Shown: positions 29,832-51,539 of the stretch, piece by piece
How the letters are laid out: each line of letters begins with the position of its first letter
How positions within the stretch are numbered: position 1 is the first letter of the stretch
The notes under the pieces: model-generated
What the model was told of the DNA's origin: nothing
The model's database searches: none
Seen by the model: the letters and a program-made list of their open reading frames with translations, nothing else
Translations under genes and position numbers: made by a program
DNA from: a bacterium
GTDB lineage: Bacteria > Patescibacteriota > CPR2 > UBA1875 > JAJYID01
Direction of reading: 5' to 3'
NCBI GenBank assembly: GCA_030647205.1
Contig: JAUSJO010000005.1
Coordinates: 74,523 to 138,522 of the forward strand
DNA length: 64,000 nucleotides

Positions 29832-30141
29832 GGAAATAAATTTCAAATCATGGAATGGGGTGAATGGAATGGAAAAGCTAGTGAGCGAGCCGCAGAACAG
29901 CCAAGAGTTTCGATATATCAAGATTCAGTTGCCGTCACGTTGCGCGGTTTGTGATGTGACTCAAGACTTCTCATGGCTAAAGCAGAAGTGTGGGGAAGTT
30001 CTATTTGGTCCGCATCTTTCTACGGTTTGTGGCAAGGTGGAGGAAAAGAACTTCGATCAAGTCATAGCTGCTATCAGAAGAGGATTCATAGTTGAGGAGA
30101 TATCCGAAAACGAGTATGCAGCTTTTTCCTGGGGCCTTTAG
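29815..30141 (+). CDS. Hypothetical protein (probable start ATG 29872)
   Basis: ORF only. Confidence 0.35.
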   Translation: MRKEPEEINFKSWNGVNGMEKLVSEPQNSQEFRYIKIQLPSRCAVCDVTQDFSWLKQKCGEVLFGPHLSTVCGKVEEKNFDQVIAAIRRGFIVEEISENEYAAFSWGL

Positions 30142-30158
30142 AGCAAACATGAAAAATA

Positions 30159-30428
30159 ATGGAGGTGGATGAGTTGGCTGAAGCTGTTGCAATAATCTTA
30201 AAAGGCGGATGGAACTGGAAGAGTTCGGTTCCGTATATGGCGGTGGCCTGTTTCTTAAAGATCATCATCATCGGCTGTATCGGTGTGATTGCTTCCGATA
30301 TGTCAGGTCCGACGATTGATCGGGTAGAAAGCACCATTATCGTGGCTGCTTTGCTCGATGCCCCGATCAGTATACTTGCGGTCAAGCTGTTTGTTGATGA
30401 GTTGAGGGATATCAGGAGAGGGAGGTAG
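30159..30428 (+). CDS. Small hydrophobic protein 1 of a four-gene overlapping operon
   Basis: ORF. Stops and starts overlap through 31274. Confidence 0.4.
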   Translation: MEVDELAEAVAIILKGGWNWKSSVPYMAVACFLKIIIIGCIGVIASDMSGPTIDRVESTIIVAALLDAPISILAVKLFVDELRDIRRGR

Positions 30429-30433
30429 CTAAA

Positions 30434-30634
30434 ATGCAAGTGATCATATCCGTAGTGCTTATTGTCTGGGCTGTAATAGTTACGTTCATAATCCAGCCTC
30501 ATATCGGTCAACCGGTGAATCCCTCTTATGTCGTTTGGCTTTTCTTCGGTCTCATGCCCGGTAGTATCGGTGCCGGTCTTTTGGCTGCCAGCCTTAGATC
30601 TAGTATATTGCCCAATGCAAAAAAAGGTGGTTGA
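30434..30634 (+). CDS. Small two-TM protein 2
   Basis: ORF, hydrophobic. Confidence 0.4.
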   Translation: MQVIISVVLIVWAVIVTFIIQPHIGQPVNPSYVVWLFFGLMPGSIGAGLLAASLRSSILPNAKKGG

Positions 30635-30990
30635 TCATGGGAATCTTCAAACCAAATGCTCCGAAAAGTTCCAAGATACTTCTGTACGGCTTTGCACTTG
30701 CGTTTATCGGGGTGTTGGCATGCACACTTTCCAGTATTATCTTTCCCAATAACTGGGACTTACTACTGATTTCAATGCTGGCACCTGGTATTCCGGGCAT
30801 GACGCTAATGCTGTATTTCTGGTTCAAATACGCGCCGGAACTTGCTTGCCCATATGACAGAGGCGAGTGCGATGGCGAGTGCGTTAGCAAAGACCAGAGC
30901 ATCATTTGCGGCCGGTATTGTAAATGCTGGGGGGAAAATGTAACAGATGGTCCCAGAACTGCTCTGGTCAGACTGAATGGAGGTGAGTGA
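30631..30990 (+). CDS. Membrane protein 3 with a Cys-rich C-terminus (CPYDRGECDGECVS...CGRYCKCWGE)
   Basis: ORF. ATGA overlap with both neighbours. Confidence 0.45.
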   Translation: MIMGIFKPNAPKSSKILLYGFALAFIGVLACTLSSIIFPNNWDLLLISMLAPGIPGMTLMLYFWFKYAPELACPYDRGECDGECVSKDQSIICGRYCKCWGENVTDGPRTALVRLNGGE

Positions 30991-31274
30991 AGATGCAGAC
31001 GGTATATGCTATTCTGGCAGCTGTAGTACTTGGCCTTTTGTTCATAGGTTACTTTCTGGTGGGTATAGGGATAGTTGCTATAAGCAAGACTAAGTATTTT
31101 CGCTGGCTTGCATCAGAGAGATATTGGAGGCGTTGTGACATGCGTGGCATCAATGAAGCCGATATCGATCTCCTTTGGCCGTTTACGCTAATTGTTTTGC
31201 CAAGCCTTGTCCTTCTAAAGGGTTCACAAATCTTGATAAGAAGGTGGGGACTGGACAACAGTTTTATTAGATAG
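30987..31274 (+). CDS. Small membrane protein 4
   Basis: ORF. Confidence 0.4.
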   Translation: MKMQTVYAILAAVVLGLLFIGYFLVGIGIVAISKTKYFRWLASERYWRRCDMRGINEADIDLLWPFTLIVLPSLVLLKGSQILIRRWGLDNSFIR

Positions 31275-31380
31275 TGATAAAGGCATTTTGGCGGGGACAA
31301 GAGAAAGTAATCTTGTCCCCGCAAAAGGGGACTTTTTGAAAAAAGAGTCCTTTTTTCTTTTGTTTGTTTTGCAAAAACCC

Positions 31381-31409
31381 TTGAAACTTCCGAAAAAATT
31401 CTGTATACT
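31381..31409 (+). promoter_or_regulatory. Sigma70-like promoter (TTGAAA, 17-nt spacer, TATACT) for uvrA
   Basis: Read directly. Confidence 0.5.
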
Positions 31410-31489
31410 ATTTAGGTTTCTAGATTTGGGCTTAAAGCAGGCTTTTTATTGTTATAGATTCCCGTTTGAGCGGGAGTAAAGGATGGGTT

Positions 31490-34315
31490 ATGCAGGATAA
31501 AATCATAGTCAGGGGTGCTCGCGAGCACAACCTAAAAAATATAGATGTTGAAATCCCTAGGGATAAATTAGTCGTGTTTACAGGACTTTCCGGTTCAGGA
31601 AAGTCCTCTTTGGCCTTTGATACCATTTATGCTGAGGGCCAGAGGCGCTACGTGGAGAGTCTTTCCTCATATGCGCGCCAGTTCCTCGGCCTCATGGAAA
31701 AACCCGATGTGGACCAGATAGAGGGCCTCTCACCGGCTATTTCTATCGATCAGAAGTCTACCACCCGCAACCCGCGCTCCACAGTCGGCACCGTTACTGA
31801 GATTTACGACTATTTGAGAATACTTTATGCACGCATCGGCGTTCCACACTGTCCTTTGTGTGGGAAAGAGATTAGAAAGCAGACCATACCTCAAATCATT
31901 GAACAGATAATGGCGATGAAAAAGGGCACCAAGTTCATGATACTGGCACCTATCATCCGTGATAAGAAAGGCGTTCATAAGTATGTCTTTGCCGAGCTGC
32001 AAAAGGCCGGCTATGCAAGGGTGCGCGTGGACGGCAAGGTCTATGAAGTTGAGGATACGCCCGTTTTAGATAAGAACAAAAAGCATACGATAGATGCGGT
32101 TATAGACCGATTTACTTTAGATAAAGAAATAGAAAAGCGCATATCCCAGTCGGTAGAAAGTGCCGTAAATCTTGGCGAGGGAGTAATAATTTTGTTCAAC
32201 TCCGAGACCAAAGAAGAGAAAATATTTTCCCAGCACTTTGCATGCCTCGACTGCGGCATCAACCTTCCTGAAATATCACCGAGAAGCTTCTCGTTTAACT
32301 CTCCATACGGCGCGTGCCCGTACTGCACGGGACTTGGCGTCAAGCTTGAAATAGACCCGAAACTTGTCGTTCCAAACGCAAATCTTAGTATTCCAGAAGG
32401 CGCTATCCGCCCTTGGTCCAGAACCGCCAGCAAGATGGGTTGGTACATCAAACTGCTCTACGGAGTTGCCGAGAAGCACGGATTTGATATAAACGCGCCC
32501 TACAAAGACCTGCCCAAAAAGGCAAAAGACATCGTGATGTACGGCACGGGTGACGAAACCTACAACGTTCACATGGGGCTTCGAGAGTACACCTCAGACT
32601 ATGAAGGCGTAGTTGCTAATCTTGGCAGACGTCACAAAGAAACCGACTCTGATTATGTCAGAAAAGAAATAGAAAGGTATATGAGTGAGAAGGAGTGTCC
32701 GAAGTGTAAAGGAACTCGCCTCAAGCCTGAAATAGCCGCAGTTACAGTTGGCGGTAAGACAATAGTCGAGATAGTCACTATGTCACTCGATAGGGCACAC
32801 GAGTTTTTTGAAACCATGAAACTTTCAGATAGAGATCAGCAAATAGCTGTTCAAGTCCGCAAAGAGTTGTCAGAGCGAATAAATTTTTTGCTCAATGTCG
32901 GACTTAACTACCTGACACTCGACCGTTCTGCGACGACCCTTTCCGGCGGAGAAGCCCAACGTATAAGATTAGCCACACAGATCGGTTCATCCCTCATGGG
33001 CGTGCTTTATATACTAGACGAGCCGTCCATCGGCCTTCACCAGCGTGACAATATACGCCTCATCGAGACATTAAAGCGCCTTCGTGACCTTGGAAACACC
33101 GTCATCGTCGTAGAGCACGACGAGGAAACCATGCTGAACTCAAACTGGATTCTCGACATTGGTCCCGGAGCAGGGGAAGCTGGCGGACGCATCATCGCCC
33201 AGGGCACACCGGAGCAGATTATGAAAGACCCGAAGTCCATCACAGGACTCTACCTTTCAGGCAAGAAAACCGTAGATTCACCAGAAAAGCGCCGAAATGG
33301 ACACGGAAACTCCATCACCATAGAGGGCGCCACCGAGCATAACTTACGTGACGTCACAGTAGACATCCCACTCGGCAAGCTCGTTCTCTGTACAGGCGTC
33401 TCTGGCTCAGGCAAGTCATCTCTCATTAACGACATCCTAGCCAAGAAGCTCTCCCAAGTATTCCACCGGGCACAGGCGCTACCGGGCAAACACAAGAGCA
33501 TCAAAGGCCTCACCAATCTCGACAAAGTCATCGACATCGACCAGTCGCCGATAGGCAGAACCCCTAGAAGCAACCCCGCCACCTACACAGGCGTATTTAC
33601 GGAAATCCGCGACCTTTTCGCATCCGTTCCCGAGGCAAAGATACGCGGGTACAAGCCGGGACGCTTCAGTTTCAACGTCAAAGGCGGCCGATGTGAGGCG
33701 TGTCGCGGTGAAGGTATCCTGAAGATTGAGATGCACTTCCTCCCCGACGTCTACATCACTTGCGAGGAGTGTAAGGGCAAGCGCTACAACGCGGAAGTTC
33801 TCGATATCAAATACAAAGGCAAAAATATCTCTGATGTTCTGGAAATGACGGTCTCAGAGGCGCTCCAATTCTTTAAAAATATTCCTAAAATCCAAATGAA
33901 GCTGGAAACGCTTGAACGAGTAGGCTTGGGTTACATACGACTTGGCCAGCCGGCAACGACACTTTCCGGCGGTGAATCTCAAAGGGTGAAATTATCGACC
34001 GAATTATCTAAGAAATCTACCGGCAAGACGCTCTACATTCTGGATGAGCCGACTACCGGCCTGCACATGGACGATGTAAATCGCCTAATGAATATCCTAA
34101 ACGCGCTTGTTGACATGGGAAATACCGTGCTTGTTATCGAGCACAATCTGGAGGTTATCAAGGGCGCGGACTGGATTATAGATCTCGGGCCTGAAGGCGG
34201 GGATAAAGGGGGAGAAGTGGTTGCCGAAGGAACCCCGGAACAAGTGGCACGAAATAAAAAATCTTATACAGGGCAATACTTGGCTGAGATCTTGAAGAAA
34301 GGAGCTATTAAATGA
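31490..34315 (+). CDS. uvrA: Excinuclease ABC subunit A (start chosen at ATG 31490; the ORF extends to TTG 31466)
   Basis: [18 protein letters not shown]; two ABC modules; Zn fingers. The C-terminal tail after ...EGTPEQV is a lineage-specific extension. Confidence 0.95.
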
Positions 34316-34545
34316 ATTGGCTCAGTGCTTTAGCTGATATATTTACAATTTTAGGATTCCCAATAGCTGTTATTTTAGTAATAAAAGAGTTTCGTAAAGA
34401 GGGGAAAATTCTAAATAACATTGAAAGCTCAATTTCTAGTGGGAATATTTCTGCTGACAAGATAAACAATAAAGGTGATATTATAAATTATACAGTCAAT
34501 AATCATATTAGCAGCGAACTAAAGGAAAAAAGCAATGAAAAATGA
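34312..34545 (+). CDS. Small membrane protein (hypothetical) in the AT-rich segment
   Basis: ORF overlapping the uvrA stop. Confidence 0.4.
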
Positions 34546-34870
34546 AAACAAATTTGATATCAAAGAAGGGACTGTTAGTTTTTGGACAAAACCTGGGCAA
34601 ATCGATTTTTCAGGTAATCAGATTATGCCGATGATACAATTCGACTCTCCAAATGGATCAATTTTTATTGTCAAGGATGATGATAAGAAGATTAAATTTT
34701 TCCACGTTTACTTAGGTAAGGGAAGAACTGATGTAGAACATGATGTTTCGGGTTTAGACCCAAAAACTGAACATATGTTTGCTTTTACGTGGAGCATAAA
34801 AGAGAGATCTCTAAATATTTATATTGATGGCGAGCTGAAAAATACAACAAAGATTGACTATATAAAGTAA
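34535..34870 (+). CDS. Concanavalin-A-like (Laminin_G_3-type) jelly-roll domain fragment
   Basis: GTVSFWTKPGQ...MFAFTWSIKERSLNIYIDGEL matches LamG_3 hallmarks. Confidence 0.45.
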   Translation: MKNENKFDIKEGTVSFWTKPGQIDFSGNQIMPMIQFDSPNGSIFIVKDDDKKIKFFHVYLGKGRTDVEHDVSGLDPKTEHMFAFTWSIKERSLNIYIDGELKNTTKIDYIK

Positions 34871-34872
34871 TT

Positions 34873-34922
34873 GGGGCGGGGAAATAGTGGCAGAAGGAAC
34901 TCCGGAACAAGCGGCAAAATAA
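34873..34922 (+). pseudogene. Degraded duplicate of the uvrA 3' end (encodes ...[11 protein letters not shown])
   Basis: Aligns to uvrA 34193-34257 (ggcgggga.aa...gaaggaac.ccggaacaag.ggca..aaataa). Confidence 0.7.
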
Positions 34923-34984
34923 CTTCCTTTTCTATTGACAAAAACCCCAATTAGAACTAATATTTGTTTTAAGAAAGGGATTTT

Positions 34985-35767
34985 ATGAAATCCAGGATTT
35001 GTTTACTAATTTTTGCTCTCGCACTAATGGCCTTTCCATTAGGAAATGTTAATGCCGCTGTTAAAGTTAATGGCTATATTAGAGATGGAAAGTGGGTTAG
35101 CAGTTATGTTCGTTCCGAACCAAATGCATTAAAATATGACAATTATAGCTATAAATCCGGTGATGATCTTTACAACAAGAGTTATTCTTCTTCCACTAAG
35201 AGTTATTCTTCAAAATGGTATACGCCCTCATATAGCTGGGACGATGATTATTACACTGGTCTTTCTTGGTACAATACTTACGGTGGAGGAAGTAAAACTA
35301 AAACTTATAGTTCATCATATTCCCCGTCTTTAAGTAGTTATACTTTTCCCAGCACAAGTAGTTATTCACTAGATAATGATAACTATTACTCAAGTTATTG
35401 GACTTCTAGATATAAACCTTCATATTCTTCCAGCACTTATAAATCGTTATTTGATGATTCTGAAGACGATAATAATAGTTATACGCCTTCATATAATTCA
35501 ACATATAAACCCTATACTCCTAGTTACACCCCAAGCTACAAACCTTACACACCCAGTTACACAACACCGAGTTACACCACTCCAAGCTATAAACCCTATA
35601 CTCCTAGTTACAGTACGCCGAGCTACAATTCTTACGCACCAAGCTATGGGTCTTCAAGTTATGGTAGCTCTGGAAGTTCTTATGGCGGATATGGTTCTTC
35701 GAGTTATGGCAGTTCGTATGGTTCTGGAAGTTATGGTTCAAGCTATGGATCATCATATAATTATTAG
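34985..35767 (+). CDS. Secreted Ser/Tyr/Gly/Pro-rich low-complexity repeat protein
   Basis: Signal peptide MKSRICLLIFALALMAFPLGNVNA; repeats (TPSY/KPYTPSY)n and GSSYG. Confidence 0.55.
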   Translation: MKSRICLLIFALALMAFPLGNVNAAVKVNGYIRDGKWVSSYVRSEPNALKYDNYSYKSGDDLYNKSYSSSTKSYSSKWYTPSYSWDDDYYTGLSWYNTYGGGSKTKTYSSSYSPSLSSYTFPSTSSYSLDNDNYYSSYWTSRYKPSYSSSTYKSLFDDSEDDNNSYTPSYNSTYKPYTPSYTPSYKPYTPSYTTPSYTTPSYKPYTPSYSTPSYNSYAPSYGSSSYGSSGSSYGGYGSSSYGSSYGSGSYGSSYGSSYNY

Positions 35768-35783
35768 TTAAGTAGGAGTATTT

Positions 35784-36092
35784 ATGAAAAAATCAGAAAA
35801 ATTTTTAGTTGTTGTTGGAGTACTTTTTGTTGTTGCATTTACTTTTTCAGCAGTTCTTAATTACCTAGATTACAAATTAAAGAAAGAAGGGTATATAACA
35901 ACTCTTTTTCAAACATATACCAGTAATGTAGAAGCATGTCGGGAAGCAGTTAATAAAGCTAACGAGAAGGCTTCTGATCAAGAAAAGAAAGACGCAGTTA
36001 AAAAGACATGTATTGATGAAATCAACAATAACAGCAGAGAAGCAAAGCTTTTGAAAAATTGGGGACAGAGTAGTCTTTTAAGTAAGGAATAG
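35784..36092 (+). CDS. Small membrane-anchored hypothetical protein
   Basis: RBS AGGAG. ORF. Confidence 0.4.
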   Translation: MKKSEKFLVVVGVLFVVAFTFSAVLNYLDYKLKKEGYITTLFQTYTSNVEACREAVNKANEKASDQEKKDAVKKTCIDEINNNSREAKLLKNWGQSSLLSKE

Positions 36093-36103
36093 GAAATTTT
36101 AAT

Positions 36104-36511
36104 ATGGACTTAGTGAAGGCTAGTAAAGATGATTGTATTTTTAAATGTAGAGATTACAAAAAAGTATTAACTCATTTTACAAAAAAAAATTATTATCGTC
36201 ATGCAAAAAAAAGACCAATTTTGCTAGATAAAACCTTCCTTCCCCCAAGAGTCAAAGAGGCACTCGTTAATCCATCAATAATAATGCCGAGTCACAACGA
36301 TAAAGACGCTCATTGTTATTACCATCACGAGATAAGCGTTAATAGGAATATTAACTGGTATACAAAAGTCGTTGTTCATATTGGACATACGGACGTTGAC
36401 ACTAAAGAGAGAGTGAACTATATTAAAACTGCATGGAGAGTAAACTTAATCAAAGAATTAGCATATAATAAAAAACCAATATATTATGATGGCACCAGTC
36501 CCAAAAGTTAA
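36104..36511 (+). CDS. Hypothetical protein (possible DUF4258-like toxin partner)
   Basis: ORF adjacent to and overlapping a DUF2283-like gene. Weak support. Confidence 0.3.
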   Translation: MDLVKASKDDCIFKCRDYKKVLTHFTKKNYYRHAKKRPILLDKTFLPPRVKEALVNPSIIMPSHNDKDAHCYYHHEISVNRNINWYTKVVVHIGHTDVDTKERVNYIKTAWRVNLIKELAYNKKPIYYDGTSPKS

Positions 36512-36920
36512 ATTAGATATTGATAAAATCAAAGACCAATTAGCTAGTCTGATGAAGATAGCAAAGACAAAAAGTTGGAAATTTGCTTATGATGAAGAAT
36601 TGGATTGTCTTTATTATTCACCTGAAGAATTAAAGGGTAATTTGATAACATTTAGCTTTGACAAGGAATTTACATTTTATATTGACACAAAGTCCAATAT
36701 ACATGGTTTTTTTATTGAATACTTCTCTACGAACTTTCTTGAGCATGAGAAAAAATTCAAAGAACTACCTGGGATGATGACTAAAGAAGAGAATGGCCTT
36801 AAAGTTGTTCCCAAAAAAGACCAAGAAAAATCAGAACTAGTAGAAACGGCTTTAGTCTCAGAAGTTATGTCGGGTTTTTTTCAAAATACTAAAAATCTAA
36901 AAGATTTAGTAGTAGCTTAG
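36486..36920 (+). CDS. Hypothetical protein with a DUF2283-like motif (FAYDEELDCLYYSP)
   Basis: Motif match from memory. Confidence 0.35.
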   Translation: MMAPVPKVKLDIDKIKDQLASLMKIAKTKSWKFAYDEELDCLYYSPEELKGNLITFSFDKEFTFYIDTKSNIHGFFIEYFSTNFLEHEKKFKELPGMMTKEENGLKVVPKKDQEKSELVETALVSEVMSGFFQNTKNLKDLVVA

Positions 36921-37033
36921 TTTGAAACCTCGCCCTAAAGTCTAGTGAAGTTTTGTATACTTGTCTTGGTTTAATAAAAGGAATAAAATACTAATGAGGG
37001 TGAGGCCCTTATTTTTTATTAGTATTCTAAATA

Positions 37034-37756: not shown

Positions 37757-37837
37757 TTTAATTCTCAACCCCACCGCCTTTGGCGGGGCAGGCCCTGGAT
37801 TTTCTCGGGCAGGCAAACCCTCAAATTAAAATAATTG

Positions 37838-37846
37838 TGCTATAAT
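37838..37846 (+). promoter_or_regulatory. Extended -10 (TGcTATAAT) 7 nt upstream of ATG 37854, implying a leaderless mRNA
   Basis: Read directly. Confidence 0.45.
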
Positions 37847-37853
37847 TTTGCTT

Positions 37854-38957
37854 ATGGAAGAAGAAGAGCTAAAGAAACCTAATTTCTTTAAAAGACACTG
37901 GAAGCTTTTGATGATAGTTTTCGGGATACTTATTATTCTGGCTGTTGGTACTATTGTCGGCCTTAATAAACTAGATAGGTATTATAAAGAAAAGTCCGGA
38001 GAGGTCGCCCCAAAAGTCGAGACAGAGTGCAAAAAGCCCGAGTTCACTCATCCCATGACTGATCTATCAAAGATTGCTTCTATCGGGAAGCTGGGTGGTT
38101 TTGGCTGTGGTTCGCCGGCGAGAAGCTACCTTACGATTAAGGGAGGTGAAGTTCCTGTATATGCGCCGATGGATGCTACTCTCGAGACCATTATTTATAC
38201 ACCGAGAGGTGGACCGGAAACTCCGCCGGAATATGGACTGTATTTTAATGCCGGTTGTAATGTGACATTTCTGTTGGATCATATAGACAGAGTGACTGAT
38301 GAGCTGAAGGCACTAGCGCCACAGCAGCCGGCTGAGTCTACCAGGACTGAGCTTGGAACGCGTCCGAACAAGAAGATTAAAGCAGGGACACTAGTCGGCT
38401 ACTCTGATGGTACACCACAGGCGAAGACATTTGACTTTCTGGTGATGGATATGTCAAAAGTGGGGGAGCATATAAATCCTTCTCGTTGGGAGACTGACCA
38501 GGCTAAGTATGGGGTTTGTCCGTACGACTACTACATTGCCCCTTATAAGGAGCAGTTTATGGAGAAGATAGGGATTAGTAGTGATACTGGTTTCACACCG
38601 GAGGATAGCTGTGGAATACCTTCTCAGGATGTGGTGGGCACACTCTCGGGAGGTTGGTTTAAGGGTACGGGTACCAATATGAAAGGCGAATTTTTAGGTA
38701 TCGGCCAGAACATACTAAGGGTTGAAGTGGCCTTGCGTAAGGATGGTAACTTTGACTTTAGTCTGCAGGACTGGGATATGGGGAAGAAAAAGCCGAAAGA
38801 CGTGAAGGTAGGGGAACAAATCTGCTACAGCGACCAAGGTAGTAATCTCTGGGCATGGATAAGGTTAGTTTCCCAAGATAAAATCTCGTTTGCGAAGGGC
38901 AGCGGGAAGTGTCCGGCCGCTTTTCCGGAATCTCAGGCGGAAATTTGGGAAAGATAG
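37854..38957 (+). CDS. Hypothetical membrane-anchored protein
   Basis: ORF. Leaderless start MEEEELKKPNFF with a TM anchor. Confidence 0.5.
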   Translation: MEEEELKKPNFFKRHWKLLMIVFGILIILAVGTIVGLNKLDRYYKEKSGEVAPKVETECKKPEFTHPMTDLSKIASIGKLGGFGCGSPARSYLTIKGGEVPVYAPMDATLETIIYTPRGGPETPPEYGLYFNAGCNVTFLLDHIDRVTDELKALAPQQPAESTRTELGTRPNKKIKAGTLVGYSDGTPQAKTFDFLVMDMSKVGEHINPSRWETDQAKYGVCPYDYYIAPYKEQFMEKIGISSDTGFTPEDSCGIPSQDVVGTLSGGWFKGTGTNMKGEFLGIGQNILRVEVALRKDGNFDFSLQDWDMGKKKPKDVKVGEQICYSDQGSNLWAWIRLVSQDKISFAKGSGKCPAAFPESQAEIWER

Positions 38958-38981
38958 TTTCAATGTAGAACAGTTTCTGTG

Positions 38982-39167
38982 CTATTTTTTATTTATATAT
39001 TTCCACAATGCGGCGATACCGAGAATTAGGGCGACTATGACGAGTATGTAGCCAATCCACATAAAAATCATGGCTCCGCCATAGCTTCCACCCATCATGT
39101 TTTGATAGGAATCGTAGTTGTACATCATTGTAAATCTCCTTTGTTTAGCTTGAGTATAGGTAAACAA
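38982..39167 (-). CDS. Tiny single-TM protein, paralog of 42520-42708 (real start probably MMYNYDSY...)
   Basis: About 85% amino-acid identity to the paralog. RBS AAAGGAG precedes ATG ATG. Confidence 0.55.
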   Translation of the reverse strand: MFTYTQAKQRRFTMMYNYDSYQNMMGGSYGGAMIFMWIGYILVIVALILGIAALWKYINKK

Positions 39168-39558
39168 TGATGGATTTACTATGGGCAGGAATACAAAAGA
39201 ATCAGAACATTTTCGTGGCTATTTTTTAGCTAAATCCAGCAAGTTTTTGAAAAGAGTTAAGGCCGCCCTTGCGGGCGGCCTTGTTGGTACGTGTTTTCGC
39301 GTTGTTTTCTTGCAGTTTCTGGTTGTCAGCCTTGGGAGCTAATTATCAAGAGCATTAACGCGATGCAGAAGATAGCTATGGGGAGCCAGTTTCTTTTGAT
39401 GTCTCTCCCGAGCTCAAACAAGGGCCAGAACATCTCGTCGCGATTCGCCACCTTCTTGATTCTTGTCATTCTTGTCGTCATTGCGATAACCTCCTTGAGA
39501 TGTTACGTGGTTAGTAACATGCCGATTGACTGGGGTGCAGGTGTACATGGAAGTTGGC

Positions 39559-39951
39559 CTATACGGCCAGAGATTCCTTTTTTGAGCGGAGTCGTTCGAG
39601 TGTTTGCTGGAGCCTAGCGAGCTCAGGTCTGACTGCCTTGATTGCATAAAGGCGCTGAGAAGCAGTGAGCGGAGGATCGTTCGTGATTTCTTCAAGCCGC
39701 GGTGCTGAGCCGAGAGGGAAAAGGGGAGGGGTAGTAAATCCAGGTATATCCATTGCGCATAAACCCTCCTTATTGATAACCAGATTTCCCCGCTCATCCG
39801 ACTCGAAAGTAATTGCCTTAAAGTAAGAATCAGCGAGTTCAGCTGTGATCTCTTTGATGAGCTTGTCTGCCTGAAGCGCGAGCTCATCCTCTGTTCCTTT
39901 TTCGGCCGCTTCATCCCAGGTCATCTCAGTTTTTTGTTCTGACGACATCAA
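39559..39951 (-). CDS. Acidic hypothetical protein
   Basis: Strong RBS AGGAGG. GC-rich. Confidence 0.5.
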   Translation of the reverse strand: MMSSEQKTEMTWDEAAEKGTEDELALQADKLIKEITAELADSYFKAITFESDERGNLVINKEGLCAMDIPGFTTPPLFPLGSAPRLEEITNDPPLTASQRLYAIKAVRPELARLQQTLERLRSKKESLAV

Positions 39952-40058
39952 AACCTCCTAGGGTAGTTACGCTTTTTGAAGCTCATCCTAACTTACAAAA
40001 GTCTGAAGATTATAATACTTTTAAGATAAATTCTCAACCCAAACCTCGAATTTTTCCA

Positions 40059-40092
40059 AAAGAAAAAGACGGGTGACTAGCACCCGTCTTTT
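40059..40092. terminator. Bidirectional terminator
   Basis: aaaaagacgggtgactagcacccgtctttt. Confidence 0.65.
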
Positions 40093-40110
40093 GGATTGGA
40101 ATCCTCCTTG

Positions 40111-40587
40111 CTATACCGAAGAAAGCCGCTCTGTTAATGCTTTTTCCTCGCGGATTTTCCGGAGTATTTTCCGCACGCGCCGGAGAGAAGGCTTGAATCT
40201 CCTGATTGCTGCTTCTCGCTGAAAATCGTACGGTAATGCATCTATGGCATGAGGGTACATGATCGATAGCCCTTGGCTCGCAACGACCAGTCTGTTTCCG
40301 TCTTTCTTCATCAGATCGACGATCTTGCCCTCTCCGGCAAGTTCCGAAATCATCTTCTGGATAATAAGGTCGACTTCATATGCAAGCTGTTGTTCGTACT
40401 GAGGGCTGTCGGCCTTGTCCCAAGTTAGTTCGAATTCGCGATCGAGAATAGCTTGATAACCTTTGTCTACCTCCTTAAGGTCAATAGTCCCGGCCAGAAT
40501 TCGATTTCGAATTTCTGTTTCCTTTCTGTAAATGGCCAACATCAGATCGTCCTCGACAGCTTTTTTGTCTTTCGCCGTCATCGACAA
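40111..40587 (-). CDS. Hypothetical protein
   Basis: RBS AAGGAGG. Confidence 0.5.
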   Translation of the reverse strand: MSMTAKDKKAVEDDLMLAIYRKETEIRNRILAGTIDLKEVDKGYQAILDREFELTWDKADSPQYEQQLAYEVDLIIQKMISELAGEGKIVDLMKKDGNRLVVASQGLSIMYPHAIDALPYDFQREAAIRRFKPSLRRVRKILRKIREEKALTERLSSV

Positions 40588-40723
40588 CCTCCTTTGGATA
40601 CGTACCTCTAGCGGAGGTATTCGCCTTATCTCGATATGAGACGACCCCTAAGCGGATAGGGGAATTAGGCATTCATTCTAACATAATTATTATGTATTGT
40701 CAATAAAATCTCAAAAAGGATTT

Positions 40724-40751
40724 TTAGAAAAAGCAAAAAGGCCCCTTGCGG
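40724..40751. terminator. Bidirectional terminator
   Basis: aaaaaggccccttgcggggccctttt. Confidence 0.65.
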
Positions 40752-40774
40752 GGCCCTTTTAAAATCAGGTGTTG

Positions 40775-41017
40775 TTACTTAGGAGGAATAGAGATTGGTG
40801 ATGCATCCGGTGTTCCGGTGTCACCGTCCCAGGGGGGTTCATCTGATCTTTGGATGGCGATATCGTACAACCCCGGTCCTGTCTTGAAGATGATTGTCTG
40901 AGTGTGTTCGATTTTCGGACTCGTTGCTGTCCCGTTTTGGTTGCCGCAACTTGCGATCAGAACGAGACTGACCAGAAGGGCAACTACCAGCAGGATCCTC
41001 TGTACGTTTATTGACAT
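40775..41017 (-). CDS. Small lipoprotein
   Basis: Signal peptide plus lipobox LIASC. Confidence 0.5.
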   Translation of the reverse strand: MSINVQRILLVVALLVSLVLIASCGNQNGTATSPKIEHTQTIIFKTGPGLYDIAIQRSDEPPWDGDTGTPDASPISIPPK

Positions 41018-41220
41018 GACTCCTCCTTGAGTCTCTGTTTTCCAGAATATTTTTTACCGCTTCGTTAGAAGCGGAGTAACCTGATTTAATGTATGGTTCA
41101 CTCTAAAGCCAAAATTTCTGCTTAAGAGAATAATGTATACTACCATAGAATATCTTTTTTGTCAATAGTTATTTAAACCCCAAATTCTCACCTTCGCAGT
41201 AGAAAATAGGGGAAACTACA

Positions 41221-41254
41221 GGCACGAGATTTTGCTATCGCACAATCTCGTGCC
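41221..41254. promoter_or_regulatory. 34-bp palindrome ggcacgagattttgctatcgcacaatctcgtgcc (copy 1)
   Basis: Perfect 11-bp arms. The second copy lies 167 bp downstream. Confidence 0.5.
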
Positions 41255-41387
41255 ACCTCACTCCTAAAACTCAGGATTATAAAGTAAAACTCAGAAATAT
41301 TGATGATATTTGCTTTTGTATACTTGTTTCTCATTTCTGAAAGGCATTAAAATATTTAGCACAAAGACAAAGTTAACGGCACGAGTT

Positions 41388-41421
41388 TTTGCTATCGCTC
41401 AAACTCGTGCCTTATAAAGGA
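41388..41421. promoter_or_regulatory. 34-bp palindrome ggcacgagtttttgctatcgctcaaactcgtgcc (copy 2), immediately before the PaaX-like gene
   Basis: Read directly. Confidence 0.5.
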
Positions 41422-41426
41422 AACAA

Positions 41427-41960
41427 TTGAAAAAGAAAAGAAAGATATATTTAGGGAAGAATGAGAGAGAAATTCTAAGGATGGTGGGAACAGGAGCTTT
41501 GGTGGCTGCTTCTTTGGTCGCGCCGAACTTGCCAAGTGCCTTTGCGGGCAAGAAAAAGAAATCTTATCGGCAGAGTTTCCAGAGGGCGTACGATAAAAAC
41601 CTAATTTATTTGAGCGGTGAGAAGGTTCAGCTCTCGGAAAAGGGACAGAAGCTGATGGAACAGATACTTAGCGAGGATATTGAAATTAAAAAGCATGAAT
41701 GGGATGGGATTTGGCGGATTGTTTCGTATGACATTCCGGAAGATCCGCTGAAAAAAGAACGAAGTTATTTCAGGCGAAAACTTGAGAGTTTAGGATTTGT
41801 GGAACTGCAGAAAAGTATGATGGTGATACCTTATGAATGCAAAGAAGAGATAGCGGTAATTGCACAGAATTTGCGGATCTCGCCATATGTCATGCATCTC
41901 ATCACCGATAACCTGCCTAGACAGAATGAGTTTGTTAAGAGATTTGGATTGGAAGAATAA
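41427..41960 (+). CDS. PaaX-like domain protein (putative transcriptional regulator)
   Basis: WDGIWRIVSYDIPE...RSYFRRKLESLGFVELQKSMMVIPY parallels the PaaX core. Confidence 0.45.
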   Translation: MKKKRKIYLGKNEREILRMVGTGALVAASLVAPNLPSAFAGKKKKSYRQSFQRAYDKNLIYLSGEKVQLSEKGQKLMEQILSEDIEIKKHEWDGIWRIVSYDIPEDPLKKERSYFRRKLESLGFVELQKSMMVIPYECKEEIAVIAQNLRISPYVMHLITDNLPRQNEFVKRFGLEE

Positions 41961-42044
41961 TTCTCAACATTTTGCTACCTGTCCGCCCGTAGCTTCAGCG
42001 AAGGAGGATCGCTCAAAGTTGAGAATTTATAAGACATGTTTTGA

Positions 42045-42497
42045 TTATTTTTTAGCTAAATCGAGCAAGTGCTTGTGCTGCCACTCTCGTTCTTTGGCAA
42101 CATCTCCGCCTGCTCTATGAATAGCTTGTAATGCGTAAATTGCACTGCCGATGGCGTGAGTGGGGACGTGCGCGGTTGCCGCTGCCTGGCCTGCGGCTCG
42201 GGCGGCAGAACGGGCTGAGCTATCCTTGTTTACATCACGGGCGGCAGCATGAGATGCAAGGGAAGCGCCGCGGATAACAGACATTTTAAATACACCTGTA
42301 TCTAGCCATGTTTGCAATGTTTCCAGAGCTTGTTTGGGTCGTTTATCATTTGGAAAACTATCTTCAAAATAGGGCAGAACCCGCTCAGCACAGTCAACAG
42401 CCCAGACAGCCAAGGTTTTCTGGTCAGCTTTACTGACTATGTCTATAAAATATTCCTTCTGCTCCGCGAGTGAAAAACTAGATTTCATACCTCTCAT
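42045..42497 (-). CDS. Helical Ala-rich protein resembling predicted immunity-protein families
   Basis: AAARDV..SSARSAARAAGQAAATAHVPTHAIGSAIYALQA. GC-rich. Weak family call. Confidence 0.3.
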   Translation of the reverse strand: MRGMKSSFSLAEQKEYFIDIVSKADQKTLAVWAVDCAERVLPYFEDSFPNDKRPKQALETLQTWLDTGVFKMSVIRGASLASHAAARDVNKDSSARSAARAAGQAAATAHVPTHAIGSAIYALQAIHRAGGDVAKEREWQHKHLLDLAKK

Positions 42498-42519
42498 TAT
42501 ACACCAGGGCAGAATGTGG

Positions 42520-42708
42520 CTATTTTTTGTTTAGATATTTCCACAACGCGGCGATACCGAGGATTAAAGTAACTATGACTAGTATGTATCCAAGCCACAT
42601 GAAGAGCACGGCTCCACCTGTGCTCCCACCCATCATATTTTGATAGGAATCGTAGTTGTACATCATCATAAATCTCCTTTGTTTAGTTTGAGTATGGATT
42701 AAAAGCAA
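42520..42708 (-). CDS. Tiny single-TM protein, paralog of 38982-39167
   Basis: See the paralog entry. Confidence 0.55.
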   Translation of the reverse strand: MLLIHTQTKQRRFMMMYNYDSYQNMMGGSTGGAVLFMWLGYILVIVTLILGIAALWKYLNKK

Positions 42709-42765
42709 TGATTTTCCTATGGGCAGGAATACAAAAGAATCAGAACATTTTTGTGGGCGGTCTCG

Positions 42766-43206
42766 TTATACTTGAGCTTGCTTTTCGGGTATAAACCTCG
42801 TAATGTACAGGCAAAAGACCATGGTAAAAAGGCCCAAGTAATAAAAGAAGTTGGTTATAGGGAATACGCCCACCTTGAGCCAGATGAAAAGAGGGGCATG
42901 AATAGACAAGAAGCCTAAGACAAACAGTATAAGAATCACTTTCTTTTCTAAGAGCTTTTTTGTAAAGAATCCGGGTATCATTATATCCAGTCCGAGAATT
43001 GCGGATATCTTATAAATCTCCATCGAGGGGTAATGGCCGCTTTTGAACAGTGCAATAGTTGGTATAAAAAAGGCAGCGCTTATTCCAAGGGCGATGAATA
43101 TCTGCCGTTTGTAAAGCTGTATTTTCATCTTCATATTTTCCATATACAAGAGAATACCATAAAAAGAGAAAGTAGGACATTTCCGTGGTCGTTTTAAAAA
43201 AAGCAA
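42766..43206 (-). CDS. Membrane protein (4 TM); real start probably an internal Met
   Basis: ORF, hydrophobic. Confidence 0.45.
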   Translation of the reverse strand: MLFLKRPRKCPTFSFYGILLYMENMKMKIQLYKRQIFIALGISAAFFIPTIALFKSGHYPSMEIYKISAILGLDIMIPGFFTKKLLEKKVILILFVLGFLSIHAPLFIWLKVGVFPITNFFYYLGLFTMVFCLYITRFIPEKQAQV

Positions 43207-43228
43207 AAAGCCGGCTTACGCCGGCTCT
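43190..43228 (-). terminator. Terminator for 43245-43595 on the - strand
   Basis: agccggcgtaagccggct followed by ttttgcttttttt (read on the - strand). Confidence 0.65.
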
Positions 43229-43244
43229 TCGCAAACAAACATTT

Positions 43245-43595
43245 TTACCCCCTGGGCTCAAGGTAGGCGCCCATTGCCGCGATGATCTCATCGAGTTCCT
43301 CAGAGAGAACATGCTGGTACTTGCCCGTAGGCAACTGGATTGCCATGATATAACCCGGTGATAAGGTCGCCTTGCAGAATGAGCCCCGTATTAAAGGAAA
43401 TCGGGAATAAACGTGTCTGCATGGTACGACCGCGACTTTTGAGTCGGCGTTGTGTTCCACTAGCTCAGTCACTGCCTCCTTACTGAAGTATATCTTTCCC
43501 TGCAAGTCTGGCAGGGTGAGGCTGCAGATGGCGAAATGCTCGGTGTCTTCATCTGCCGGTCCAACTACAGGTTTTTCTATAATTTCTGTCGCCAT
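43245..43595 (-). CDS. Hypothetical protein (start MATEIIEK after RBS GGAGGTG)
   Basis: ORF plus RBS. Confidence 0.45.
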   Translation of the reverse strand: MATEIIEKPVVGPADEDTEHFAICSLTLPDLQGKIYFSKEAVTELVEHNADSKVAVVPCRHVYSRFPLIRGSFCKATLSPGYIMAIQLPTGKYQHVLSEELDEIIAAMGAYLEPRG

Positions 43596-43780
43596 GATCA
43601 CCTCCAAATAGCTTGTTTGCGTTTGAGATCTAAACCTGCCATTTAGCAAAAACTTATTTCGGCCAAATGTCAGGTCTAGAGAGAGCTGGAAAGGTACGAT
43701 AGTGATTTATAATAGCATGAAAGATATAAAATATCAATTCTGAAGTCGTCACAATATAACATTCTCGTGAGCGGTTTTTG

Positions 43781-43789
43781 TGCTATAAT
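43781..43789 (+). promoter_or_regulatory. Extended -10 TGcTATAAT 6 nt before ATG 43796, implying a leaderless mRNA
   Basis: Read directly. Confidence 0.45.
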
Positions 43790-43795
43790 TCTGCC

Positions 43796-44260
43796 ATGGA
43801 AATCATCAAGAAAATAGATATTCATAAGGAATCAGAAAATTTTCTAAAAGAGTGTTCGCCTCCATCGGTAGGATATCTAGAAAGAGCCTTTAATAAGTAT
43901 AAGTTTTGGTATCAAATCTCTGTAGATGAAGATGATTTTAGTAAAATTATGATTGGCGGTTCTCCTTTAAAAGATGAACCTTGTTTTCTCAAGGAAGCGG
44001 TTGAAGAGCTAGTCCAAAATAAGCACTTACTAGAGGTTGAGCAAGAGGGGGTTAACACAAAACATGTTGGGAAATATCTAGAAGCGAACTATTTAGGTGA
44101 TATATTTCTAATACAGAAAGACTTTATAACCAAGAACGATCTCTATGTTATAGACGGGATGCATAGACTTTTAGCGTATGGGCTGAGGCTAAAGGAAGGT
44201 GAGAAGTTTCAGGATTTCATCGCTTATCTTGGTTGGAATGAAAAACTCTTAGTGGAGTAA
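43796..44260 (+). CDS. Hypothetical protein
   Basis: ORF only. Confidence 0.4.
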   Translation: MEIIKKIDIHKESENFLKECSPPSVGYLERAFNKYKFWYQISVDEDDFSKIMIGGSPLKDEPCFLKEAVEELVQNKHLLEVEQEGVNTKHVGKYLEANYLGDIFLIQKDFITKNDLYVIDGMHRLLAYGLRLKEGEKFQDFIAYLGWNEKLLVE

Positions 44261-44297
44261 GGAGCAAGGCAGAACATTCTTGTGATATCATTGATAT

Positions 44298-44915
44298 ATG
44301 AAAAAAGTTTATAAACAAACCCAGGCGGTCTATGAAAAGCTTGCCAAAAAATATGTCGAAAATATTAAGGATCTAACACCAGATGATCTGTATAGGTTTA
44401 TAGAACTTCTTCCGAGTGGTGCCTCGATCTTGGAAGTTGGTTGTGCTGGCGGGAGGGACGCGAGGATATTTCTAGATAAGGGATTTAAGGTTGCCGGCAT
44501 AGATTTAGTTAAAGCATTCATCGATATTGCCAGAGAAGAATGTCCAGATGGCGACTTCTATCAAATGGATGTGCTGGATTTAGATTTCCCTGACAGCAAA
44601 TTTGATGCTGTTTGGGCCTATGCGTCTCTTTTGCACTTGGATGATGAGGATATGCTAAAGGCACTAGTTAATATCAACAAGGTTTTGAAGTCGCAAGGAA
44701 AAATATTTCTTGGTCTTAAGCTAGGGGATAAAGAATCTATTGTTTCTGATAAGTTGTCAGATGGGGAAGAGAGGTACTTTAACTTTACAACCAAAGAGAG
44801 AGTGTTTGAGTATCTTCAGGAAAGCGGATTTAAAGTGTTAAAATATTTTCTTGTTGCAGATAAGGCGGGAAGAGATGATGTGAAATGGATATACGTATTT
44901 GCGGAAAAATCTTAA
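44298..44915 (+). CDS. Class I SAM-dependent methyltransferase
   Basis: Motif I LEVGCAGGRDA; motif post-I KVAGIDL. Confidence 0.7.
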   Translation: MKKVYKQTQAVYEKLAKKYVENIKDLTPDDLYRFIELLPSGASILEVGCAGGRDARIFLDKGFKVAGIDLVKAFIDIAREECPDGDFYQMDVLDLDFPDSKFDAVWAYASLLHLDDEDMLKALVNINKVLKSQGKIFLGLKLGDKESIVSDKLSDGEERYFNFTTKERVFEYLQESGFKVLKYFLVADKAGRDDVKWIYVFAEKS

Positions 44916-44951
44916 AGTAGAACATCTCCGTGGTCGATTTTGTGATATCTC

Positions 44952-44960
44952 TGCTATAAT
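44952..44960 (+). promoter_or_regulatory. Extended -10 TGcTATAAT 6 nt before ATG 44967, implying a leaderless mRNA
   Basis: Read directly. Confidence 0.45.
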
Positions 44961-44966
44961 AGGGCA

Positions 44967-45482
44967 ATGAAAAGGGCGATTATCATACATGCATGGGACA
45001 GTGCTCCGGAGCAGCACTGGTACCAGGAGGAGAAGAAACTTCTGGAAGAGAAGGGCTACTCTGTTGATTTACCAAAAATGCCCGGCGGTCTCTGGCCGAA
45101 GCAGGGTGAATGGCTGAAAGTTATTGAAGGCCTAAAACCTGATAAAGATACGATCATGATCGGTCATAGTTTGGGTGTCCCAGCTATACTTAGATATTTG
45201 GAAGATACTGGCAGTAAAGTCGATAAGCTATTTCTCATTGCTGCTTTTGCCGTAGATCTGGGGATAGAGGAGACTAGCAACTTTTTTGAAAAGCCCTTTG
45301 ATTGGGAGAAAATTAAGGGTGACACTAGCGAGTCCTATGTGATAAATGAACAGAATGATCCGTATGTTCCGTTGGAAAAAGGTAAAGAAGTCGCTGATGG
45401 ACTAGGAGCTGAATTTAGTGCTGTAGAAAGTAATATCCATTTTGATAAAATGGATTTGGATTTAATAAATTCGAGATTATGA
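44967..45482 (+). CDS. Serine hydrolase of the YdeN/RBBP9 (DUF1234) alpha/beta-hydrolase family
   Basis: IIHAWDSAPEQHW ... MIGHSLG. Confidence 0.6.
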   Translation: MKRAIIIHAWDSAPEQHWYQEEKKLLEEKGYSVDLPKMPGGLWPKQGEWLKVIEGLKPDKDTIMIGHSLGVPAILRYLEDTGSKVDKLFLIAAFAVDLGIEETSNFFEKPFDWEKIKGDTSESYVINEQNDPYVPLEKGKEVADGLGAEFSAVESNIHFDKMDLDLINSRL

Positions 45483-45742
45483 AAAAAGATTTAGAGAGTG
45501 AGATAAATGACATCAAGGAAAGAAACAAACGGGTTGAGGCAGATAAGGCCTGGGAAACGAGCCTGTTTCGAAAGGTTTTGATCATGGCCTTTACTTATAT
45601 AATAACTGCCATGGTTTTTTACCTATTAGGAGTAGATAATTATCTGGCAAGCGCGCTAATACCAACCATAGGTTACTTTTTATCAGTACAGTCGCTACCG
45701 TTTATCAAAAAGTGGTGGATTGATAAACATTATAAAGTTTGA
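45479..45742 (+). CDS. Small membrane protein
   Basis: ORF. Confidence 0.4.
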   Translation: MKKDLESEINDIKERNKRVEADKAWETSLFRKVLIMAFTYIITAMVFYLLGVDNYLASALIPTIGYFLSVQSLPFIKKWWIDKHYKV

Positions 45743-45762
45743 ATAAATAATTTATTCTGATT

Positions 45763-47190
45763 ATGGATTTGAAAAAGACAGTTCAAAAACTTCCAACGAC
45801 TCCCGGCGTCTATATCTACCGAAACGCGGGAGGGAAGATTATATACATCGGAAAAGCTATCAACCTGCGTGCCAGGGTGAGGTCGTACTTTCAGGATTCT
45901 CCGCAAGAGCCCAAAACTCAGAAATTAGTTAGAAATATCGCCACATTAGAGCATATGAAGACGGGTTCTGAGATAGAAGCACTAATCCTTGAAGCTGAGC
46001 TTATAAAGCGCTATAAACCGAGGTTTAATATCATTTGGCGTGATGACAAAAACTATATCTACATCAAGATTACGAACGAAGATTACCCACAAGTTTCGCT
46101 AGTACGCCAGATAGTAGACGATAAGGCGAAGTATATCGGGCCTTTTGTGAGTGCCGGTGCTGTACGAGGATTACTCCGCTATATAAGGAAAATATTCATG
46201 TTCCGGCATTGTGAAAACCTGCCTCAGAAAGTTTGTCTTCAATATTCCATCGGAAACTGTTCAGGACCTTGTGAGAAGTTTATTACGAAGGTAGAGTATA
46301 AAAAAAGTATTCGCCAGATGGAGAAGCTCTTTCAAGGAAAGACGAAGGAGATAGAAAAAGAGTTCAAGCGTGAGATGAAGCTTGCTGCTAAGGGTGAGGA
46401 CTTTGAGAAGGCGGCTTTGTACAGAAATCGGCTGATGTGGCTAAAGAAGATTAAAACCATAGAACTGGGCGAGGAAGAGAGGGATTTGAAGCGGGATAAG
46501 GCACTAGTTGGGCTTCGCGATGCGCTAAATCTAGGTGCCGTGCCGAAAAGGATAGAGTGCTACGACATTTCCAATATTTTTGGTAAGGCGGCTGTGGGCT
46601 CAATGGTGGTTTTTGTGGACGGGATTCCGGAGAAAAACCATTACCGTAGATTTGAGATTAAAACAGTAGACAAGATTAGTGATACGGATATGATACGTGA
46701 AGTTTTGGGGCGCAGATTCAAGAAATTTGGCAACATAACCAAGCCGGACGATTCATTCTCGCAGATTCCTGACCTCCTTATTATAGACGGAGGGAAAGGA
46801 CAATATTCGGCGGCCGAAAAAGCACTTGCGCAATATGGACTAAACTTGAATTTAATATCTTTAGCGAAACAGCGCGAGGAAATATTCAGAAGGAATCCGG
46901 AAACAGGCGAGTTCTATAAAACTATGCTGGAGGAAGGTTCGGAGAGCTTGTATCTGGTCCAAAGAATTCGTGATGAGGCACACAGATTTGCCATTACATA
47001 CCATAGAAGCAAGAGGGGGAAGGAAATGGCAGTTTCAAATCTGGATGTTGTTGATGGTATCGGCCCAAAAACAAAGAAAGTGCTTCTCAAAACTTTCGGT
47101 TCGGTAGAAAATGTCAGAAACACATCAGTTGAAGATTTGTCAAAAATAGTCGGTGAAAAATTAGCAAAAAAGATTAAGGAAACTTTATGA
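45763..47190 (+). CDS. uvrC: Excinuclease ABC subunit C (compact, 475 aa)
   Basis: GIY-YIG (GVYIYRNAGGKIIYIGKA), UVR motif, endonuclease V-like domain, C-terminal (HhH)2. Confidence 0.9.
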   Translation: MDLKKTVQKLPTTPGVYIYRNAGGKIIYIGKAINLRARVRSYFQDSPQEPKTQKLVRNIATLEHMKTGSEIEALILEAELIKRYKPRFNIIWRDDKNYIYIKITNEDYPQVSLVRQIVDDKAKYIGPFVSAGAVRGLLRYIRKIFMFRHCENLPQKVCLQYSIGNCSGPCEKFITKVEYKKSIRQMEKLFQGKTKEIEKEFKREMKLAAKGEDFEKAALYRNRLMWLKKIKTIELGEEERDLKRDKALVGLRDALNLGAVPKRIECYDISNIFGKAAVGSMVVFVDGIPEKNHYRRFEIKTVDKISDTDMIREVLGRRFKKFGNITKPDDSFSQIPDLLIIDGGKGQYSAAEKALAQYGLNLNLISLAKQREEIFRRNPETGEFYKTMLEEGSESLYLVQRIRDEAHRFAITYHRSKRGKEMAVSNLDVVDGIGPKTKKVLLKTFGSVENVRNTSVEDLSKIVGEKLAKKIKETL

Positions 47191-51430: not shown

Positions 51431-51447
51431 ATAATATTTATTTTTCT

Positions 51448-51534: not shown

Positions 51535-51539
51535 ATATT

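Follow-up and report, generated by a model that had tools for sequence, protein, structure and literature searches.

Integrase-mediated islands in the 3' ends of genes include the tRNA and tmRNA islands, SCCmec at rlmH and the dusA-specific elements. Integrase-free hotspots of horizontal transfer between core genes are a further concept, reportedly set out by Oliveira, Touchon and Rocha in 2017. Bacteria of the candidate phyla radiation (CPR, Patescibacteria) have tiny genomes in which few mobile elements can be recognised, and the way in which they obtain accessory and defence genes is poorly understood. Sequential (C-terminal) displacement by homology-facilitated illegitimate recombination was proposed for the effector-immunity arrays of the type VI secretion system (T6SS) of Vibrio cholerae (Kirchberger et al., 2017; PMC5361080), where orphan C-terminal modules of rhs and contact-dependent inhibition (CDI) systems are also cited (Jackson et al., 2009, as cited in PMC5361080). 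Insertion with long target duplication is known for restriction-modification units (Nobusato et al., 2000; Furuta et al., 2010, PMC2853133). Here we analyse the 3' end of the repair gene uvrA in a stretch of 64,000 nucleotides (the window) from contig JAUSJO010000005.1. A 48-nt piece of uvrA lies a short distance downstream of the intact gene, and we hold with moderate confidence that foreign DNA was inserted at the uvrA 3' end by a homology-anchored, integrase-independent route, through sequential displacement. The scar in the window is a new instance of an already known kind of process and reveals no new kind of machine.

The host is a CPR/Patescibacteria bacterium; the best matches of its UvrA are to Patescibacteria, Saccharibacteria and Kazan metagenome-assembled genomes. 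In the relatives L082 (75% UvrA identity) and L004 (71%), only 4-8 nt separate the uvrA stop codon from the uvrC start, and yvcK comes directly after uvrC. This tight uvrA-uvrC-yvcK operon is the ancestral arrangement, and L082 and L004 represent the empty site; in the window, 11.4 kb lie between uvrA and uvrC. An earlier reading of the letters alone (the sequence-only reading) had proposed that DNA was inserted at the uvrA 3' end, and the presence/absence comparison with these two relatives agrees with it. The decayed island of about 3.5 kb that it had outlined is a different matter, as the low-G+C region is the uvrA-proximal part of a compound, hypervariable uvrA-uvrC interval that extends over the whole 11.4 kb.

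Each of the six closer relatives by UvrA identity (L162, 99%; L163, 94%; L164, 93%; L167, 92%; L002, 89%; L173, 86%) carries a different gene set in the uvrA-uvrC interval. Their cargo comprises an N6/N4 methylase with a MutH-like protein, a C5 methylase with ThaI, Gp49/HTH, Fic, HepT/MNT, Imm5-like and Peptidase_M78 genes, and others; it includes restriction-modification systems and toxin-antitoxin pairs beside the Fic and Imm5 genes. In having different accessory and defence genes in each close relative, the interval resembles the core-gene hotspots, in which turnover is said to be attributed to recombination in the flanks. Unlike these, the uvrA locus shows a molecular trace, in the form of fossils of the uvrA tail, and a polarity, which point to the uvrA 3' end as the entry side. 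The genes that the window and L162 have in common are uvrC-proximal only (protein identities: a lipoprotein, 72%; an Imm5-like protein, 77%; a 134-aa open reading frame (ORF), 98%; Ser_hydrolase, 90%; an 87-aa ORF, 94%), and on the uvrA side each has a unique stretch, of 6.5 kb in the window and 4.2 kb in L162. Because the common genes are restricted to the uvrC side, new DNA appears to enter from the uvrA side.

The partial uvrA copy that the sequence-only reading had placed about 0.6 kb past the live gene is confirmed (Table 1); a two-gene cassette (cassette 1) lies between the two. A repeat finder pairs 34208-34249 with 34875-34916 (42 nt, no gaps, 81% identity), and local alignment extends the pair to 34257 and 34922, with 40 matches in 48 and one 2-nt gap. 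The remnant reads in frame, as (W) plus 15 residues followed by TAA. Its raw blastn score of 47 is far above the scores of 200 block shuffles of the uvrA-uvrC interval (28.1 +/- 2.2, maximum 38; z of about 8.7), which excludes chance similarity to uvrA. A tblastn search with the whole of UvrA found no further uvrA-like piece in the rest of the window.

The remnant starts at G907 and ends at K921, 20 codons short of the uvrA stop. Lacking the true end of the gene, it is not simply a displaced uvrA 3' end. Nor does it fit the description of a degraded copy of the resident gene, since its identity to the resident uvrA is only 78% when read in frame (81% over the ungapped 42 nt), against 91% to the L163 allele; the longest identical run between the two uvrA copies of the window is 10 nt. 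We regard the 48-nt piece as probably a recombination scar, that is, a fragment of a different uvrA allele that was left by homology-anchored insertion without an integrase.

Remnants of the same kind are found in L162, in L164 and the related assemblies L165 and L166, and in the distant lineage L152 (Table 1), which bears out the view that the uvrA 3' end carries a footprint of insertion. The remnants have the same orientation as the live gene and lie 0.04-1 kb past its stop, with foreign cargo between. The double-remnant arrangement of L164 recurs in L165 and L166, which are 99.97-100% identical to it and come from independent assemblies of different Hainich groundwater samples. L163, L167 and L002 have no uvrA remnant, and a weak uvrA-like trace 31 nt past the stop in L173 is not significant (E = 0.04-0.09). 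The cassette of L152, at 4071-4750, consists of a hicB (UPF0150)/hicA toxin-antitoxin pair after uvrA, in which hicA has an internal stop.

Remnants and live genes differ mainly at third codon positions. Pooled over four remnant/live pairs, 49 of the 70 nucleotide differences fall at third codon positions, all changed codons of the L162 remnant (10/10) are synonymous, and every remnant keeps an open frame, with neither frameshift nor internal stop. The synonymous bias and the match to a foreign allele imply that the two copies diverged in working uvrA genes of different lineages and were then juxtaposed by recombination. Judged from their sequences, the remnants are alleles and not decayed duplicates. 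Local duplication followed by decay would explain why direct repeats of more than 30 bp flank the insert, why they are single-copy in the empty-site genomes and why no mobility gene is present, and it would fit insertion with long target duplication (PMC2853133). However, the excess of third-position differences, exclusively synonymous in L162, is unexpected for a non-coding relic of an identical copy, the frames are intact, and the window remnant matches the foreign L163 allele better than the resident gene. We consider such a duplication quite improbable.

The locus nevertheless shares several traits with the long target duplications described before: small, low-G+C units without mobility genes are inserted beside or into the 3' end of a gene, and the flanking direct repeats (40 to several hundred bp in the published cases) are single-copy in the empty-site genome. 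The published repeats are near-identical target duplicates, for example with 44 of 46 positions matching (PMC2853133), whereas the uvrA copies are 76-88% identical (78-81% in the window), with differences that are mostly synonymous, which makes them alleles. In addition, the cassette in the window is not a restriction-modification unit.

The endpoints of the remnants vary. They start at D904 (L164 remnant B), G907 (window), E916 (L164 remnant A) and V919 (L162), and the remnants of L162 and L164 run through the uvrA stop codon, unlike that of the window. The window and L162 remnants overlap by 3 codons only, and with such variable endpoints there is no common core. An integrase gene was not found either. 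Pfam scans of 18 ORFs of at least 77 aa detected no recombinase family in the uvrA-uvrC interval of the window, in line with what the sequence-only reading had stated. The gene tables of L162, L163, L164, L167 and L173 list no Pfam match to an integrase, recombinase or transposase in the corresponding intervals, and the two inserted ORFs of L002, the sole ORFs scanned in that genome, have none.

These observations bear on site-specific integration, in which an element with an integrase would have recombined at an attB site in the uvrA 3' end, so that the two uvrA-like pieces represent attL and attR; the integrase would since have been lost or would act in trans. Such a model accounts for direct repeats of a gene 3' end on both sides of a low-G+C insert and for the reuse of the same gene end in relatives, and the highly conserved stretch coding for GTPEQ would make a good attB. 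We nonetheless think it unlikely, because the intervals of the window and of five close relatives show no integrase, the repeats have lengths of 43-114 nt and different starts among genomes, the longest identical run in the window pair is so short, and the cassettes measure only 0.6-1 kb. Moreover, the window remnant lacks the end of the gene, which the L162 and L164 remnants include, and at its far end, 37757, the low-G+C block is not closed by another uvrA-like repeat. As in integrase islands, insertion at the 3' end keeps the gene intact and leaves a partial copy of the gene end at the far side. The uvrA locus differs from them in that we detected no integrase, fixed core, constant repeat endpoints or closing repeat, and the 'classic attL/attR footprint' of the sequence-only reading is not upheld.

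A false partial duplicate could also arise if metagenome assembly had fused two strains with different sequences downstream of uvrA. The window does come from a metagenome-assembled genome, and the contig of an independent Logan assembly (L001, SRR13727527) begins at 34377, inside the 77-aa membrane-protein gene of cassette 1 and 62 nt past the uvrA stop; this break might reflect strain heterogeneity at the newest junction. Over 34377-39208, however, the Logan assembly is 100% identical to the window, and this range includes both edges of the remnant. Analogous remnants are present in other genomes, with the L164/L165/L166 set identical in three independent assemblies, and a longest identical run of 10 nt offers no exact word long enough to mislead an assembler. 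An artefact of assembly is thus highly improbable.

The live gene encodes a full-length UvrA with the canonical C-terminal ...GTPE...SYTGQYL... end; over full-length matches the protein is 99% identical to P0001 and 89% to L002. An end of the type ...GTPE..(K)SYTGQ(Y/F)L.., followed by a short basic tail, terminates UvrA in 80 of the 80 relatives examined from the genome collection, and in the closest relatives the conserved 14-residue end is followed by 6-7 K-rich residues. The C-terminal tail of the live gene, which had been called novel, therefore belongs to a type found in all of these relatives. Homology at the DNA level extends to 34300 in the blastn comparison with L002 and to 34290 in that with L162, which, together with the canonical tail, rules out that the island supplied it. 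We accordingly judge the tail to be native and canonical by sequence comparison, not a contribution of the element. This genome is distinctive in the last ~6 residues alone (KKGAIK), which differ even from those of the 99%-identical P0001. A Shine-Dalgarno sequence of the next gene, AAAGGAG (34298-34304), sits within the last uvrA codons, and the ATG of that gene (34312) overlaps the uvrA TGA. These last codons are the probable left junction of the inserted DNA (Table 1).

The uvrA gene itself is a mosaic. Compared with L164, it is 71-85% identical in the first 2 kb, and identity reaches 96-99% between gene positions 2025 and 2400, a tract that L162 has as well. Inter-lineage homologous exchange within the 3' third of uvrA is thus directly visible in the identity profile. 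In window coordinates the tract of 96-99% identity to both L164 and L162 covers 33490-33940, against 71-91% in the remainder of the gene; it is a recent inter-lineage gene-conversion patch.

We propose the following course of events. DNA of a related strain, possibly taken up by transformation, would arrive with a uvrA 3' portion and the genes that are its downstream neighbours in that strain, and would pair with the resident uvrA by homologous recombination. The far end would then be joined by homology-facilitated illegitimate recombination, or else a circularised fragment would enter by a single, Campbell-type crossover. Either route would produce an intact uvrA with the incoming tail, followed by the new cassette, and would strand the other uvrA 3' piece behind that cassette. 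Repeated rounds would stack tail fossils, as in L164, and push older cargo toward uvrC. In the window, cassette 1, with its membrane-protein and mini-LamG genes, would be the newest addition, and the stranded piece would then have been cut at codon 921, or have been cut there already, where a low-G+C block encoding a serine- and tyrosine-rich (S/Y-rich) protein joins it. Possibly, the S/Y-rich block had joined an L163-like resident uvrA at codon 921 and a later anchored event restored uvrA and added cassette 1; alternatively, a deletion may have removed the tail of the remnant. As part of this proposal, we find it fairly likely that, in this CPR lineage, the few bases after uvrA have become the site at which DNA enters a hypervariable island.

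The proposed course resembles the displacement described for the T6SS arrays and rhs loci, in that the homology anchor is provided by a conserved coding region upstream, incoming DNA brings a new 3' end with cargo, and old 3' ends move downstream along with their cargo and accumulate there in the same orientation, all in the absence of an integrase. It differs from them in several respects: the anchor is a housekeeping repair gene with an invariant tail function, the displaced pieces span only 15-37 codons and carry no toxin domain, and the cargo is miscellaneous (a membrane/LamG pair, restriction-modification, toxin-antitoxin) instead of cognate effector-immunity pairs. The host, moreover, is a CPR/Patescibacteria bacterium.

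Several points weigh against homology-anchored insertion. The window remnant stops at codon 921, without the tail and stop context that a single anchored insertion would leave and that is seen in L162 and L164, so that a second junction or a deletion must be assumed. The gap between the last cargo gene and the remnant is 0-4 nt in each of the three close cases, which is tidier than random illegitimate joints predict. GTDB genomes, JGI metagenomes and a protein collection yielded no relative at strain level (>95% nucleotide identity over the locus), whether it had cassette 1 or lacked it, so that the individual event was not reconstructed. The nearest relative over the whole locus carries other cargo and reaches only 91% identity in nucleotides, against 99% in the UvrA protein. 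Exact look-ups with UvrA, the 77-aa ORF and a 369-aa ORF returned zero contigs. A trans-acting recombinase may, furthermore, be encoded elsewhere in the genome, outside the 64 kb.

A related idea is that the first bases after uvrA form a dedicated cassette-capture site in this CPR clade, functionally similar to the attI site of integrons and driven by an unrecognised trans-acting or host-encoded activity, not by occasional illegitimate recombination. New cassettes of 0.6-1 kb would then always enter beside uvrA, each bringing or regenerating a uvrA tail, and older ones would shift toward uvrC; the tail fossils would, if this were true, form a readable chronological record of acquisitions. We consider such a site doubtful, and favour homology-anchored, integrase-independent insertion. 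The locus provides a concrete sequence-level trace of integrase-free gene acquisition in CPR bacteria, to which an operon split by a hypervariable island, stacked uvrA-tail fossils in several lineages, the allelic nature of these fossils and the mosaic uvrA all contribute, and it suggests an entry mechanism that is testable. A partial 3' end of a core gene that lies shortly downstream of its intact copy could serve as a simple marker for finding such hotspots elsewhere.

Table 1. Features of the uvrA-uvrC interval in the window, and uvrA remnants in other genomes.
Feature	Position	Strand	Description
Intact uvrA	31490..34315	+	941 aa from ATG; alternative start TTG at 31466
Live uvrA segment matching the remnant	34208..34257	+	codons G907-N922
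Last uvrA codons, KGAIK and stop	34298..34315	+	unique to this genome; probable left junction, from sequence and blastn alignment ends
Cassette 1	34312..34870	+	two genes, G+C 31%
Small membrane protein	34312-34545	+	77 aa; first gene of cassette 1
Mini LamG-jellyroll protein	34535-34870	+	111 aa; Laminin_G_3, E = 9.5e-8
uvrA 3'-region remnant	34875..34922	+	15 codons then TAA; allelic (L163/P0002-like), truncated on both sides
Near-consensus sigma-70-type promoter, TTGACA-17-TAATAT	34935..34963	+	candidate, consensus match only
Block 2 of the low-G+C segment	34985..37756	+	32% G+C; secreted S/Y-rich protein of 260 aa and ORFs of 102, 135, 144 and 240 aa
Right edge of the low-G+C segment	37757..37762	.	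similarity to L167 resumes at 37762
Remainder of the variable interval	37848..45742	.	normal G+C
uvrC	45763..47190	+	right-hand conserved flank, 475 aa
L162 remnant (UvrA 99%)			79 nt, 86% identical to its own uvrA end, 23 residues; directly behind a 309-aa cargo gene, ~1 kb beyond the live stop
L164 remnant A (UvrA 93%)			78 nt, 25 residues; 36 nt past the live stop
L164 remnant B (UvrA 93%)			114 nt, 37 residues; after a DUF5674 and 110-aa pair
L152 remnant (UvrA 61%, distant lineage)			43-nt uvrA 3'-end repeats, 88% identical, flanking a hicB/hicA cassette

Cassette 1 is a discrete, complete two-gene unit. Its second gene had been taken for a LamG-like fragment, but 46 homologues of similar length (91-128 aa, nearly all 106-128 aa) cover nearly the whole query (92-99% in nearly all), and the mini-LamG protein is therefore a complete small protein of about 110 aa; truncation of the gene by the junction is ruled out on the same grounds. 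The pair of membrane-protein and mini-LamG genes recurs in other CPR genomes in unrelated contexts. The 5' untranslated region of the cassette, compared with distant homologues to pin the left junction, is not conserved in them. In two Pacebacteria contigs (L170, 790-2310; L171, 844-2364), a homologous pair is found ~3.4 kb from a 506-aa large serine recombinase, a hint that the pair can travel on integrative elements elsewhere. The 102-aa and 240-aa ORFs of the window have the same sizes as ORFs beside the Pacebacteria pair, but these have no sequence similarity, and apparent synteny was dismissed as a coincidence of length.

The G+C content drops from about 47-49% to 31-32% over 34316-37757, which supports the low-G+C stretch noted before downstream of uvrA and sets its right edge at about 37757. 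A candidate promoter directly follows the remnant (...GCA AAA TAA) and lies upstream of the gene for the S/Y-rich protein (Table 1). The proteins of block 2 have no homologue in any locus compared, and the gene that the sequence-only reading had called DUF2283-like has no DUF2283 match in Pfam at E <= 0.1. Compared with 50,697 phage and 72,556 plasmid records, the low-G+C block gave no match at the nucleotide level; there was no PHROG match below E = 0.002 and no convincing PADLOC match, and the 240-aa ORF has no relative in viral contigs. A phage or plasmid origin of the block was rejected on these results. No Rfam family was found within 30000-47000. The 11-mer TTCTCAACCCC, shared by the right edges of the islands in the window and L002, is not above chance.

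The uvrC-proximal genes in the remainder of the interval are common to relatives (a lipoprotein, a PaaX_M regulator, an Imm5-like protein, the 134-aa ORF, a methyltransferase, Ser_hydrolase and the 87-aa ORF), and its uvrA-proximal genes are not. Within the variable interval, a direct repeat of ~235 nt and ~85% identity occurs at 38978-39208 and 42515-42746, 3.5 kb apart; each copy contains a small minus-strand membrane ORF (MMYNYDSYQNMMGG...WKY(I/L)NKK) with its upstream region. A 55-nt element is present twice, at 41200-41254 and 41357-41411 (76% identical), directly upstream of a PaaX_M/Cas2-like regulator gene (41427-41960). Each element ends in a 35-nt hairpin-forming arm (GGCACGAG...CTCGTGCC), and the two may be operator-like sites.

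The operon has further irregularities downstream of the interval. A 172-aa ORF at 47187-47705, between uvrC and yvcK, is shared with L162 and absent from L002, L082 and L004, in which uvrC and yvcK adjoin each other. This ORF represents another insertion in the operon, smaller than the first. UvrC is longer in L002 (14531-16084, 517 aa) than in the window by ~42 aa, and that of L163 also has 517 aa. In the L002 protein the motif GQARMT(R/K) occurs three times (SGQARMTRDKG, SGQARMTKQRD and YGQARMTRVGK), which looks as if short repeats had been inserted in frame into a core gene.

Short dispersed palindromic repeats of the type GTCATTCC...GGAATCC / GTCATTCTG...CAGAATC are common to the window (13205-13265, 256-286, 4108-4174 and 55753-55788), L164 (13830-13890) and L002 (several sites), often at intergenic or cassette borders. 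An ordinary-looking cluster of tRNA genes occupies 51343-51955 of the window on the minus strand; its six members are Leu, Leu, Cys, Gly, Phe and Val.

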